29,877 nt of DNA from Candidatus Heimdallarchaeota archaeon (GTDB taxonomy: Archaea; Asgardarchaeota; Heimdallarchaeia; JABLTI01), in NCBI GenBank assembly GCA_030614005.1, contig JAUWKS010000040.1, positions 1 through 29,877 of the forward strand, read 5' to 3'. The position numbers were made by a program, and so were the translations under genes. A model generated the notes under the pieces. It searched no databases, was not told the origin of the DNA, and saw only the letters and a list, made by a program, of their open reading frames with translations. This document shows positions 8,725-12,145 of this stretch, one piece after another; within the stretch, counting starts at the first letter, position 1, and each line of letters opens with the position of its first letter.

Positions 8725-8793
8725 CAAATTTGGGATGGGAACAAGTGTAAAGGTTGTTATCAAAAACAGAAAGGATATTGTAAAGGTATATAA
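8725..8793 (+). repeat. PLD 3'-end repeat R1 (69 bp)
   Basis: Translates as QIWDGNKCKGCYQKQKGYCKGI*. Confidence 0.95.
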
Positions 8794-8811
8794 TTATAAA
8801 GTTATAAATTT

Positions 8812-9171
8812 CTAGTCACTGACCAATGACCGAAGTTCACTACTTCTTTTGATATTATCAATTAATATTTGCCCATTAAGTAATGCATTCTTTAGTATGA
8901 AATTGTTTTGTTTTAGTAATTCAATAGCCTCAGTTAATGAATAAACAAAAAAATCACACGGAAAGTCAACAATTGGTTTATCAATTCTGCTTTCAGAAAT
9001 TATTACTAAATCATAATCACTAAGTAAATTGAAATCATCTCTACTTCTTGAGCCAAATAAAACAATCAAAACTTTTTCAGAGGAATAACTGTCAAGAAAT
9101 CGTTGAAGATTTAAATTCCATTTCTCACTAAGGGTTTTAATCTTGTGGTAAAAATTTACTTGCAAAAGCAA
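8812..9171 (-). CDS. Minimal nucleotidyltransferase (MNT), antitoxin of a HEPN-MNT pair
   Basis: LFGSRSRDDFNLLSDYDLVII (GS-x10-DxD). Overlaps the end of the HEPN gene; true start uncertain. Confidence 0.9.
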   Translation of the reverse strand: MLLQVNFYHKIKTLSEKWNLNLQRFLDSYSSEKVLIVLFGSRSRDDFNLLSDYDLVIISESRIDKPIVDFPCDFFVYSLTEAIELLKQNNFILKNALLNGQILIDNIKRSSELRSLVSD

Positions 9172-9526
9172 AAATATCCTCCAAACATTTTATAGCATTT
9201 TCAGTTTCTTCTAAAGTATACTCAGTAAATCTTGAATCTGGATATCTTGCTTGTAGATAGTGATTAGCCAAAGTTCTCAAACAATCAATTATTTCCTTTG
9301 GAAATTTTCCAAGATCAATTGCTTCAATTATCTCATAAAGCTCAATAAGAGAGTGAGTAAATGGTCTTGAACCACTGTTACCTACAATAATTCCTTTCAG
9401 GAGTAATTCTACCGCTTGTTGAGCAGAAAAACAAGCGACATCGTAGAGCTTATTTTCTTTTGCTAGGATGGCATTCTCCTTAAAATTGGTTGCTTTTTTC
9501 AACCAATCTTTAATCATTTTTTTCAT
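9137..9526 (-). CDS. HEPN domain protein (HEPN-MNT toxin-antitoxin)
   Basis: ACFSAQQAVELLLKG, THSL and YLQARYPD are typical of the HEPN family. Confidence 0.92.
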   Translation of the reverse strand: MKKMIKDWLKKATNFKENAILAKENKLYDVACFSAQQAVELLLKGIIVGNSGSRPFTHSLIELYEIIEAIDLGKFPKEIIDCLRTLANHYLQARYPDSRFTEYTLEETENAIKCLEDIFAFASKFLPQD

Positions 9527-9624
9527 TTCTTCTCAATAATAATTTCTTTTTCTTCTCTTTAAAGGTGTTCATTAATCATAATTCCACTATGTTAAAAATC
9601 AATTTTAGTTAAATGTAGGTTAGC

Positions 9625-9681
9625 AATGAAAGTAAAGGTAGCTATCAAAAACAGAAAGGATATTGTAAAGGAATTAAATAA
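9625..9681 (+). repeat. PLD 3'-end repeat R2 (57 bp)
   Basis: Translates as NESKGSYQKQKGYCKGIK*; the first two Cys codons are changed to Ser by T>A. Confidence 0.95.
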
Positions 9682-9713
9682 AAGCTAAATCGAGTTATTA
9701 TTATAATGGTTTG

Positions 9714-9758
9714 AGAAGAATCGTTTATATAAAATTAAATTAAAAGTACAAATGTACT
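9714..9758 (+). promoter_or_regulatory. Archaeal promoter (purine-rich BRE-like tract plus TATA) with a palindromic operator
   Basis: AGAAGAA..TTTATATA (TATA 9724-9731) ends 31 nt before the ATG at 9762. AGTACA-AA-TGTACT at 9745-9758. The paralog promoter has the same spacing. Confidence 0.6.
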
Positions 9759-9761
9759 AAA

Positions 9762-9995
9762 ATGAATGTAAGTATGAAGAAAGAAGTAGCAGAAGAATTA
9801 ATCATCTTTAAACTTCGGAGAATACAAACATCAATTGAAGATATTTTAGCAAGATGGAATGAAACCTCAGCAGAAGAATTCTTGCAAAAAGCTAAAGATG
9901 GTAGACATGAAAATGCTGAAAATGATGCCATAGGACTCAGACAGCTTTTATTGGAAGAAGAGAAATTGCAAACGTTACTCAAAGAACTTGGGTGA
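9762..9995 (+). CDS. 77-aa putative antitoxin, copy 1
   Basis: Close paralog of 10564-10797. Small acidic helical protein directly upstream of a RYDN...HHxH gene. Confidence 0.75.
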   Translation: MNVSMKKEVAEELIIFKLRRIQTSIEDILARWNETSAEEFLQKAKDGRHENAENDAIGLRQLLLEEEKLQTLLKELG

Positions 9996-9996
9996 A

Positions 9997-10368
9997 TTGG
10001 AGTAAAAAATAATTTCTGCTTGGGAAAAGATTGAGATAGCAAAAGGTATTATTGTTAATGAATTATTGGATGAAATACTTGATTTTCATCTCAGTGAAGA
10101 TAGACCTATGCTAACAATAATTTTCAAAATGGGATATACACTCTTTGTGCAATATAATGATTATAATGAATACTCTTATCATTTTCAGCTTGTTCAAAAA
10201 TCAAATGAATTTATTTGATATGATAATTTTGATGATAGATGGAATGTAAGTACGAAACCACATCATTTCCATCCTGGAGATAAACAAACCGCAACCGAAA
10301 GTTCAATGAAAGGTTTGCCGGAAATCGATATGCCAATTCTTGTTCAAAAACTAATGACTTATCTCTAA
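9997..10368 (+). pseudogene. DUF6516/TumE-like putative toxin, copy 1, with two in-frame stops
   Basis: TTG start; TAA at 10003-10005; TGA at 10216-10218 replaces the R of RYDN; then YDNFDDRWNVSTKPHHFHPG...LMTYL*. Collinear with copy 2. Family name assigned from memory of the motif. Confidence 0.75.
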
Positions 10369-10444
10369 TTACTTATTTTACAAAAAACATTCAAAACTAA
10401 ATTAAACCGTTATGCTACTAAATAAATTTTCCAAATTGAATAAA

Positions 10445-10498
10445 AATAAGTGCAAAGGGTGCTATCAAAAACAGAAGGGATATTGTAAAGGAATTTAA
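10445..10498 (+). repeat. PLD 3'-end repeat R3 (54 bp)
   Basis: Translates as NKCKGCYQKQKGYCKGI*. Confidence 0.95.
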
Positions 10499-10515
10499 TT
10501 ACTGGAAACTATATA

Positions 10516-10561
10516 AGAAGAATTATTTAAATAAAATCAAACTAATAGTACATGTGAACTA
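10516..10561 (+). promoter_or_regulatory. Promoter of TA copy 2
   Basis: AGAAGAA..TTTAAATA (TATA 10526-10533) ends 31 nt before the ATG at 10564. Degenerate palindrome TAGTACATGTGAACTA. Confidence 0.5.
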
Positions 10562-10563
10562 AA

Positions 10564-10797
10564 ATGAATGTAAGCATGAAGAAAGAAGTAGCAGAAGAAT
10601 TAGTCACGTTCAAATTGAGACAAATTCAAATATTAATAGAAGAAATATTACAGAGATGGAATGAGAAAGTAATCGAAGATTTCTTAGAGAAAGCAAAAGA
10701 TGGCACTTTACATGAAGCAGAAAATGATGCAATAGAATTGAAACAACTAGTCTTTGAAGAAGAAAAACTTCAGAATTTATTAAAAAAATTAGTGTAA
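10564..10797 (+). CDS. 77-aa putative antitoxin, copy 2
   Basis: MNVSMKKEVAEEL...ENDAIELKQL; paralog of 9762-9995. Confidence 0.75.
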   Translation: MNVSMKKEVAEELVTFKLRQIQILIEEILQRWNEKVIEDFLEKAKDGTLHEAENDAIELKQLVFEEEKLQNLLKKLV

Positions 10798-10799
10798 TT

Positions 10800-11170
10800 T
10801 TGGAGGAGAATAGTATTTTTGCTTGTGATAAACTCCTACAAGCAAGAAAATTACTCGTAGATCAACTTCCATCAGAGATTTATGAAATCATAATAGATAA
10901 AATTCGACCAATTCTTATAGTAAAATTTACTAAAAGCATTATAGTACATATTCGTTACAATAATTTTGATGAATATAGTTATCAAATTATTTTTTCAAAG
11001 AAAAAATTTGACAGAGTTAGATATGATAATTATGATGACAAATGGGATGTAGTATTAAATCCACATCATATGCATCTAGAAATGAAAAATCAGCAATTAA
11101 AAGTCCAATGGTTGGAAACCCTGAAAAGGATATGCTAATTCTTATTAAAGTCTTAAAAAAATTATTTTAA
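10800..11170 (+). pseudogene. DUF6516/TumE-like putative toxin, copy 2, with a 1-nt deletion near 11076
   Basis: RYDNYDDKWD...PHHMH, then a frameshift. The shifted frame NEKSAIKSPMVGNPEKDMLILIKVLKKLF* aligns with the copy 1 C-terminus. Length 371 vs 372 nt. Confidence 0.75.
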
Positions 11171-11237
11171 ACTTTTAATTAAAAGTATTTTTTTGTAACG
11201 ATTATTCTTCAAGTCTTTTAAACTATGTTTTACATTC

Positions 11238-11288
11238 ATCATAGTAAATTATGCAAACACTCTAGTAAACTGAATAGATTTAATAAAA
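11238..11288 (+). repeat. 51-bp motif, copy 2
   Basis: ATCATAGTAAATTA-N11-TAGTAAACTGAATAGATTT-A-ATAAAA; matches 2740-2790. Confidence 0.8.
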
Positions 11289-11433
11289 TAGATAAAAAAT
11301 GAAAAAAAGGTTAAAAGAATATTAAAAACATAGATACTATCCTTTTTTCTTTCTTCTAACAACAATTACTACGACTAAATGCCTATCATTAATTGGTAAT
11401 TAATTATTAATTTGATCTTATAGAATTATTACC

Positions 11434-11910
11434 TTACATATTAATTGTGAAACTTTCAAGTGTATGATTTTGGTGAACGTAATTATTAACTGATATGAAT
11501 TGCAAAGTGAATGATTTACAATTCAAATTGTATAAAATACCTTTAATTAAAATAGGCTTAATACATCGAGCTACATCACCATTTGGTTCAAAGATTTGCA
11601 AAATGCTAACTATACTACTATTTTCTAAACCATCTAACCAGAAAGTACTAGCATCTGTATTAGAGTAAATATAAAACAATTGTTTGAAGTAAATTTTATC
11701 ACCTACAATATTTATGTTAATATACGGTGGCCAATCGATTCCTAATGTGGTAGTATAGTCGAAGTCGATTTCATATTCCAGAGTTGCATCTATTTCATCA
11801 ATAGGTACAACCATTGGTTGATAAACGCTTATGATACCATTTCCTATCATAGAAAATATCACTATCAATACCACAGAGAATACCATAACAAAAATAACTG
11901 ACCTTTTCAT
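11434..11910 (-). CDS. Hypothetical exported/membrane-anchored protein
   Basis: 158-aa ORF with an N-terminal hydrophobic segment (MKRSVIFVMVFSVVLIVIF). Confidence 0.7.
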   Translation of the reverse strand: MKRSVIFVMVFSVVLIVIFSMIGNGIISVYQPMVVPIDEIDATLEYEIDFDYTTTLGIDWPPYININIVGDKIYFKQLFYIYSNTDASTFWLDGLENSSIVSILQIFEPNGDVARCIKPILIKGILYNLNCKSFTLQFISVNNYVHQNHTLESFTINM

Positions 11911-12103
11911 AAAATAATAATGTTTAAAGTAGTTAAAAAAATTTCTGTGTATTCTAATTTTTTGTAATGATATTTTTCATACTCAATTTTTCTATAAGCA
12001 AAAATATTCCACCAAATCTCTAAAAATATTAAGTATTATCACTTCAGACAGAACAGCATAATATCAGGTTGGATTCATCATTCTGAATGTTGAAAACAAT
12101 GAA

Positions 12104-12145
12104 GATTGCTATCAAAAACAAAAAGGATATTGTAAGGGAATAAAA
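12104..12145 (+). repeat. PLD 3'-end repeat R4 (about 40 bp, the shortest)
   Basis: GAT TGC TAT CAA AAA CAA AAA GGA TAT TGT AAG GGA ATA AAA = DCYQKQKGYCKGIK. Confidence 0.92.

Follow-up and report, generated by a model that had tools for sequence, protein, structure and literature searches.

How did the end of a single gene come to stand five times in a row on one strand, with other genes between the copies? The question is raised by a 29,877-nucleotide (nt) stretch of DNA from a Heimdallarchaeota genome (contig JAUWKS010000040.1 of assembly GCA_030614005.1; hereafter the window). The window carries an intact gene for a PLD-like protein, a putative nuclease. The final 71 nt of the gene (R0; repeat family D4) appear again further downstream, four times and always on the same strand, as orphan gene ends (R1 to R4). 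Comparison of these sequences with related genomes suggests, with a probability of about 0.55, that the array is an integrase-free accretion site built by sequential displacement. The anchor gene and the repeats are as follows.

6121-6660, plus strand: anchor gene, an intact PLD-like putative nuclease of 179 amino acids with a single HKD motif (from Pfam and motif)
6590-6660, plus strand: R0, the live gene end, closing with IWNGNECKGCYQKQKGYCKGIK and a stop codon, core at 6622-6647; it is the end of open reading frame (ORF) 6121-6660
8726-8796, plus strand: R1, orphan gene end, IWDGNKCKGCYQKQKGYCKGI and stop
9611-9681, plus strand: R2, orphan gene end, NESKGSYQKQKGYCKGIK and stop; both cysteines of the CxxC motif are serine, and the frame upstream of it contains a stop
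10431-10501, plus strand: R3, orphan gene end, closing with NKCKGCYQKQKGYCKGI and stop
12078-12148, plus strand: R4, the most distal orphan gene end (DCYQKQKGYCKGIKLQS and stop)

The source genome (G000) is a metagenome-assembled genome of 3.6 Mb, ~90% complete, with a G+C content of 33.5%, and the window is its contig C25. The comparison set consists of 11 genomes of the genus including G000 (the others carrying labels such as G001, G004, G005, G009 and G010). Array structure was compared in three of them, G005, G009 and G010 (34 kb in the last), and at metagenome loci. The locus labels used below are L032 (G005 contig C47), L035, L052, L057 and L061 (G000 contig C15). The stretch is present in public cold-seep and marine-sediment metagenome runs, and its junctions were checked against Logan contigs of public runs (X1, X5 and X6). 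All five repeat junctions are spanned by such contigs, R0 to R3 each by an identical one from run X1 and R4 by a 98%-identical one from run X5. This support is not fully independent, since X1 may be the sample behind the assembly of the window and some runs may be source samples. One joint in X1 links position 10178 to 11008, with 26 letters on one side and 26 foreign letters, which is probably cross-mapping between two paralogous cassettes (3 and 4, below). An 18-nt insertion, GAAACTATTACAATATGT, directly follows R3 (window 10504) in contigs of X5 and X6 and in G001, and is missing from the window.

The repeats and where they came from

A degenerate 26-nt pattern for the core of the repeat matches five times in the window, where shuffled sequence gives an expectation of 0.00, and has no further copy anywhere in the 3.6-Mb genome. 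The PLD tail was also the sole multi-copy case in a genome-wide scan for repeated gene ends. As a separate observation, the last ~12 codons of a 319-amino-acid ORF of unknown family (C15 13115-14074) recur as a single orphan end elsewhere in G000 (C15 14922-14958; L061 2423-2459). That copy sits ~850 nt downstream of its ORF, behind small minus-strand ORFs.

The five PLD repeats extend to the stop codon, and just 0 to 4 codons vary after the residues GI. The stop had been placed at the same or an adjacent codon in R1 to R3, and this is what the translations give: R0 ends in GIK, R1 in GI, R2 in GIK, R3 in GI and R4 in GIKLQS. A codon-by-codon recount over the 12 codons CYQKQKGYCKGI likewise returned the reported 11 synonymous changes and 1 non-synonymous change between R1-R4 and R0. 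The sole non-synonymous change, TGC to AGC in R2, replaces Cys with Ser. Of the seven sites that vary, six are third positions; with random placement of changes, six or more synonymous sites out of seven would have a probability of 1e-4 to 1e-3 for kappa of 1 to 4. Because the variation among the repeats has a period of three, coding constraint is needed to account for it. Decay in place is rejected on the same ground, since untranslated copies of R0 would not yield a period-3 pattern.

The proposal of the first-pass annotation, that the orphans are former translated ends of other alleles and not decayed copies of R0, is thus upheld by the synonymous pattern, and also by intact alleles that match. 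When the repeats were aligned with the PLD 3' ends of relatives, R3-like and R1/R2-like ends were both recovered. R1 is 92.8% (69 nt) and R2 92.9% identical to the end of an intact allele of G010 (G010_1), closer in each case than to R0. The intact PLD gene of G001 ends in R3-type sequence, matching 18 of 19 nt left of the core (15 in the next best allele), and is followed by the same TumE-type cargo as R3 (92% over 435 nt). The cassettes that lie between the repeats in the window are these.

6661-8725: cassette 1, with a 597-amino-acid ORF at 6778-8571 on the minus strand that matches no Pfam family
8812-9526, minus strand: cassette 2, an MNT-HEPN toxin-antitoxin pair, with the MNT nucleotidyltransferase at 8812-9171 and HEPN at 9137-9526
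9762-10340, plus strand: cassette 3, with a 77-amino-acid ORF at 9762-9995 and a remnant resembling TumE, whose frame holds a TGA at 10216-10218
10564-11910: cassette 4, with a 77-amino-acid ORF at 10564-10797, a TumE-family ORF at 10800-11138, a copy of a 51-nt motif at 11255-11301 and a 158-amino-acid ORF at 11434-11910 on the minus strand

R3 and cassette 4 are together collinear with G001, while for R1, R2 and R4 collinearity is inseparable from crossovers in the core. In G010, too, cassette 1 is accompanied by the left part of R1, with the same junction (CTCC followed by AAAT). R4 is followed by ~50 nt resembling the start of cassette 2, and window 12102-12186 is 82% identical to a tail and cassette 2 start in G010.

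The matches had also been described as shortening in order with distance (69, 57, 54 and about 40 bp), consistent with an age gradient. In the window the shortening stands only loosely and depends on the method. Homology to the left of the core by X-drop extension runs 33, 18, 19 and 10 nt for R1 to R4, and blastn-short matches to R0 run 41, 44, 35 and 33 nt, so that R2 and R3 are about equal or reversed. The age gradient is not supported as a rule, since in the relatives the corresponding left homologies are unordered (36, 9, 33 and 16 nt in G010; 50, 3 and 4 in G005; 36, 37 and 138 in L052). The core mismatches of successive orphans in the related arrays are unordered as well. The gradient of the window may be chance (~1 in 24 for four items), because related arrays show none.

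Nor did the invariant third positions prove to mark a special recombination core, as they show no significant excess over codon usage; the codon-bias explanation that had been offered beside this idea fits the result (permutation P = 0.14). Six codons are invariant among the five copies, where 2.6 would be expected from genome codon usage (TAT 0.75, CAA 0.84, AAA 0.78, TGT 0.72) if the copies were independent, and the copies are related. Among 15 intact alleles, no other 27 nt of the gene are as conserved as the codons for CYQKQKGYC (mean identity 0.86), and synonymous identity in the tail is the highest in the gene (~0.73 vs 0.53 gene-wide). Its excess over the codon-usage expectation is 0.10 vs 0.05 for the rest of the gene, which ranks 10th of 76 windows. 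The nucleotide conservation of the tail can be attributed to its invariant Cys, Tyr, Gln and Lys residues, because these have two-fold, AT-biased codons. Nothing points to selection on the tail DNA itself. The five repeats form no hairpin or dyad (DNA folds of -0.5 to -5.8 kcal/mol; z of -1.4 to +1.1 against shuffles), and the older orphans of related genomes differ from the core at 3 to 6 positions.

The anchor gene, its relics and related arrays

The anchor protein is, by motif and domain, a member of the PLD superfamily (HKD), with a putative nuclease role. It matches PLDc_2 (2.2e-13, 50.6 bits, cut-off 27) and PLDc (1.7e-6, 28.2 bits, cut-off 21.9) in Pfam and contains the motif HMKIVLVD, which is one HxK(x)4D; H102, K104 and D109 are invariant across eight PLD alleles. 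The top profile matches are DrmC (2.2e-10) and DpdK (5.8e-8 in PADLOC, 6.6e-8 in NCBIfam), with a weak match to NucT. The protein shares with Nuc/NucT, DrmC and DpdK a single HxK(x)4D motif, a length of ~180 amino acids and defence-island-like surroundings. However, it scores far under the curated cut-offs (32.3 bits against 100 for NCBIfam DpdK, 29.3 against 133 for DrmC), so that neither DISARM DrmC nor Dpd DpdK is assigned, and its C-terminal tail is of the form CxxC-x7-C. Partner genes of DISARM or Dpd are absent from the scanned or annotated ORFs of the window. An AlphaFold model of the protein (mean pLDDT 62; 52 to 56 in the tail) was too weak on zinc binding by the cysteine tail and was set aside.

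The anchor gene is a mosaic. Codons 1 to ~100 are nearest to type-B alleles (0.80 to 0.88), and from codon ~110 the gene is nearest to type-A alleles (up to 0.90), with the switch at about codon 105, close to the HKD motif. Two relics of type-A alleles lie upstream, the first directly before the anchor.

5701-6120, plus strand: type-A PLD allele, 5' half only, which breaks off right after the codon of the HKD aspartate
2398-2775, plus strand: a second 5' half of this type, carrying an in-frame TGA; its end falls at the same codon, and the 51-nt motif comes next

The motif that follows the second relic, TAGTAAACTGAATAGATTTGATAAAA..., is ~50 to 60 nt long and occurs at window 2752-2803 and 11238-11309, more weakly at 1865-1898 and 2075-2106, and also at L032 6177-6249, L035 4943-4999 and L057 8880-8960. 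It is always preceded by a remnant of the HKD-coding end of the PLD gene (...ATCATTGTAGAT/AAT), from ~16 nt up to the whole 5' half, and the junction is in frame: ...IIVD/N-Y(A/S)(S/N)(T/I)(L/I)VN and a stop. In its behaviour the motif resembles the 3' end of a gene variant, a truncated 'half-PLD', that leaves orphan ends of its own.

PLD genes were found in 7 of the 11 genomes of the genus including G000, several of which have multiple copies and orphan ends on one contig. The related arrays hold PLD 3' fragments that start at residues ~85, 93, 101, 113, 125, 142, 148 and 153-167, together with whole extra PLD genes, 5' fragments and many tails, and every PLD match is co-oriented. The left boundaries of the orphans spread from 3 to ~270 nt and form a continuum with no single fixed site. 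Cargo elsewhere in these arrays includes HEPN-MNT, PIN and DUF6036 modules, a NACHT-NERD protein, a candidate-defence PD-(D/E)XK protein, and FG-GAP, LVIVD and LRR surface proteins.

Two insertion or deletion differences (indels) between strains record recent exchange at the tails. Contig C335 of G004 corresponds to positions 8043-8743 of G005 contig C47 joined to 17066-19618 (98 to 99% identity), and because C335 joins these two segments the strains differ by an 8.3-kb block between two tails. Allele-specific bases place the crossover inside AAAGGATATTG of the core; perfect identity there extends over just 11 nt, within an imperfect match of 35 nt. The block missing from G004 encodes two proteins (L032 11230-15834, on C47 of G005), a NERD-NACHT protein of 1534 amino acids and a PD-(D/E)XK protein of the candidate defence family PDC-S26. 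In the second case, a contig of run X5 (from another study, diverged by a few percent) is longer by 2440 nt at R2, the added sequence lying between two copies of the 32 nt at 9643-9674. It includes the end of a further PLD copy as well as a unit of 963 nt. The order of cassettes is also cyclically permuted between genomes, being cassette 2, TumAE-like, cassette 1 in G010 and cassette 1, cassette 2, TumAE-like in the window.

The cassettes themselves are of mixed kinds, and by Pfam annotation cassettes 1, 2 and 4 are mutually unrelated. The 597-amino-acid gene of cassette 1 is present in two of the ten same-genus genomes searched (G000 and G010), in both within the PLD array and at 87% amino acid identity, and is common in another family of the class. 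Because it is rare in the genus and confined to arrays there, it is regarded as accessory cargo in the genus. Cassette 2 matches NTP_transf_2 (1.7e-6) and HEPN (6.1e-30) and recurs behind a different orphan tail in G010 (84% over 851 nt). Cassettes 3 and 4 are paralogous (78% identity over 188 nt, against 10516-10703; family D7), and the TumE ORF of cassette 4 matches Pfam TumE at 5.7e-6. Both TumE-type genes (9996-10340 and 10800-11170) look damaged, the conserved C-terminal part of the second shifting frame after ~11090, and the 77-amino-acid ORFs upstream of both are intact.

Other features of the window lie outside the array. Three tandem paralogues of a Zn-dependent alcohol dehydrogenase (12340-15289, minus strand; 60 to 80% DNA identity) follow R4, and the same cluster ends the PLD array in G005. 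Two adjacent minus-strand ORFs (167-592 and 749-1765) match Amidohydro_3 positions 164-328 and 406-470 and look like a split or broken gene. At 18752-18931 there is a stranded, frameshifted copy of the first ~60 codons of an ABC-transporter ATPase gene (17186-17366, minus strand; 80% identity). It breaks just ahead of the Walker A codons and is separated from the intact gene by an M23 peptidase gene. An ATTGTA cleavage motif common to the tail and the HKD break was considered and dropped, as the junction of the ATPase fragment lacks ATTGTA.

Assembly of the array

Sequential displacement is favoured because the orphans are relics of other alleles, the fragments form a continuum of lengths, extra PLD copies are present, all are co-oriented, the anchor is a mosaic, orphans decay and no recombinase was found. 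The process would start from a PLD-like nuclease gene that is often exchanged among related archaea. Incoming DNA would consist of part of a foreign PLD allele and whatever stood behind it, and PLD homology would let it pair with the resident copy. The far end of the incoming DNA would join illegitimately downstream, often in the last third of the resident gene, so that the resident gene end and its cargo would be shifted downstream as an untranslated orphan. Repetition would stack units of old gene end and old cargo. The last 30 to 70 nt, the most conserved nucleotides, may later act as short homology patches between alleles that are 60 to 80% identical. This role is proposed for the tails because they are the most conserved stretch of the gene, with invariant residues and AT-biased codons. 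Recombination from tail to tail would then delete, swap and reorder cassettes, and both strain-level indels are of that kind. The toxin-antitoxin cargo would probably slow the loss of cassettes, as in chromosomal integrons. The comparison itself demonstrates that the repeats are relics, that alleles have been exchanged, that indels are bounded by tails and that the arrays and their surroundings yield no recombinase match. We infer the mechanism of joining, homology-facilitated illegitimate recombination, and its polarity from these patterns.

The search for recombination machinery agrees with this picture. The tyrosine recombinase profile (PF00589) has no match in or beside the arrays in five genomes, and G000 has one Xer-like match, on contig C58. 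The serine recombinase profile (PF00239) has none in G000, G004, G009 or G010 and two in G005, on other contigs. No transposase, integrase or recombinase appears in the Pfam annotation of ~60 array and flanking ORFs (window, G005 and G010), and no integrase or remnant of one across ~100 kb of arrays (G000, G005, G009, G010 and metagenome loci). There is no tRNA or tmRNA gene in the window and no Rfam family in positions 1-16000.

Several points weigh against sequential displacement. Orphan starts are concentrated in the last 40 codons (~11 of 16), and the window's four orphans are all short. Short orphans may dominate if long repeats are quickly lost by recombination, which is an extra assumption that the scheme requires. 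The 11-nt crossover tract is short for classical homologous recombination. Both strain-level indels can be read as deletions, and no gain event was caught directly. The joint travel of R1 and cassette 1 would fit crossovers in the core as well as displacement. The array ORFs without a family could include an unrecognised recombinase, and all of the genomes are metagenome assemblies with completeness of 64 to 92%.

A site-specific system of the integron type is unlikely. Here the tail core would be the attachment site, served by an enzyme encoded elsewhere or by the PLD protein itself, and circles would be excised and inserted at the gene end. The layout has much in common with integrons and with clusters of attC sites lacking an integrase (CALIN), including the archaeal ones: a one-directional array, small promoter-poor cassettes, a repeated site, toxin-antitoxin-rich content and variation between strains. 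In its favour, the window's cassettes are small, with a tail bounding each one, and the two recent indels end exactly in tails. The cyclic permutation of cassettes points the same way, as does the fact that cassette 1 keeps the left part of R1 beside it in two genomes. The PLD gene is the sole component common to all arrays, and a sequence search of the PDB gave only weak PLD-family matches, among them a poxvirus 'virion nicking-joining enzyme' (E = 0.07). Nevertheless, the arrays have no tyrosine or serine recombinase in or beside them, the single Xer-like match of G000 notwithstanding. The site has neither dyad symmetry nor hairpin, its core shows no excess synonymous conservation, and the orphans decay. 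A fixed site is also hard to square with left boundaries that range from 3 to ~270 nt and with the whole PLD copies and 5' fragments scattered through the arrays. Unlike an integron, the array lacks IntI, its repeat is a coding gene end of variable length without an attC hairpin, and copies of the anchor lie inside it; identity with integrons was rejected for want of an IntI-type recombinase beside the arrays and of an attC fold. A site-specific system keeps some plausibility because no gain was seen, all orphans of the window are short, R1 travels with cassette 1 and the crossover spans 11 nt.

Tandem accretion of integrative elements at the 3' end of the PLD gene, with replacement gene ends brought along and integrase modules since lost, is quite improbable. 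Staphylococcal cassette chromosome (SCC) elements at rlmH/orfX and ICESt1 and cis-mobilizable elements (CIME) at fda accrete in tandem at the 3' end of a protein gene through site-specific recombinases. As in those elements, direct repeats of the last codons of the target bound the units, restoring frame and stop codon so that the gene stays intact, successive repeats represent different alleles, the cargo is of accessory and defence type, and some units lack a recombinase. However, SCC and CIME elements have Ccr or Int in at least some units and fixed repeats of 15 to 30 bp, and neither was found here, where the ~100 kb of arrays hold no integrase or remnant, units go down to 0.8 kb and repeat lengths vary. 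Extra PLD genes and 5' fragments would not be expected from integration at the 3' end. Accretion of the SCC/CIME type was therefore rejected as an identity, as there is no recombinase and repeat lengths vary.

It is more doubtful still that the PLD protein nicks and rejoins DNA, or makes recombinogenic breaks, at its own tail-coding sequence, which would make it a self-targeting cassette recombinase and a new enzymatic class. HKD enzymes act via a covalent phosphohistidine intermediate, and the idea is entertained because of this family chemistry and the weak PDB match to the poxvirus nicking-joining enzyme. Local tandem duplication of the PLD end with its cargo, followed by divergence in place to leave decayed copies of R0, would suit the paralogy of cassettes 3 and 4 but is scarcely credible given 11 to 1 synonymous differences, unexpected in untranslated copies, R1 to R3 that resemble intact alleles from other genomes more than they do R0, and cassettes 1, 2 and 4 that are unrelated.

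Comparison with displacement arrays and implications

The nearest published parallels to sequential displacement are the effector-immunity loci of type VI secretion (T6SS) in Vibrio cholerae and the Rhs orphan arrays, in which a homology anchor is combined with an illegitimate joint and the old 3' region moves downstream (PMC5361080, PMC2935791). In Rhs, CdiA and T6SS loci, as here, co-oriented orphan 3' fragments stand behind a full-length gene, each with a conserved piece and its own downstream genes. No dedicated recombinase is involved, and the published model adds later homologous recombination among the repeats. Co-oriented orphans, an origin in other alleles and a variable left boundary are all present in the PLD arrays, whereas a variable toxin domain and immunity genes are not. 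The PLD array has no variable toxin tip; what is repeated is the extreme end of the ORF. Its cargo consists of unrelated genes (toxin-antitoxin pairs, a membrane protein) in place of cognate immunity genes, its anchor is a small cytoplasmic PLD-like nuclease and its host is an Asgard archaeon. By analogy, the layout appears to work like the Rhs, CdiA and T6SS orphan arrays, but it is not a member of that class, as the defining toxin tip and immunity genes are lacking. The aloposons of Heimdallarchaeum (PMC8813620) are unrelated to the locus, being giant-gene elements that target tRNA. Within the library covered, full-text searching turned up no paper on arrays of this kind behind the gene of a PLD or other defence nuclease. 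It is most likely that the locus represents a known kind of process, here acting on a new gene and in a new lineage.

If sequential displacement is correct, the stacking of genes in this way would not be confined to the polymorphic-toxin loci of bacteria (Rhs, CdiA and T6SS). A variable island of accessory and defence genes would have been built behind a small nuclease gene, by general recombination only, in the archaeal group nearest to the eukaryotes. This would give Asgard archaea a testable route by which foreign genes are acquired and reshuffled without the enzymes of mobile elements. The relic gene ends would then form a readable record of past alleles, from which the history of exchange among sediment strains could be reconstructed.

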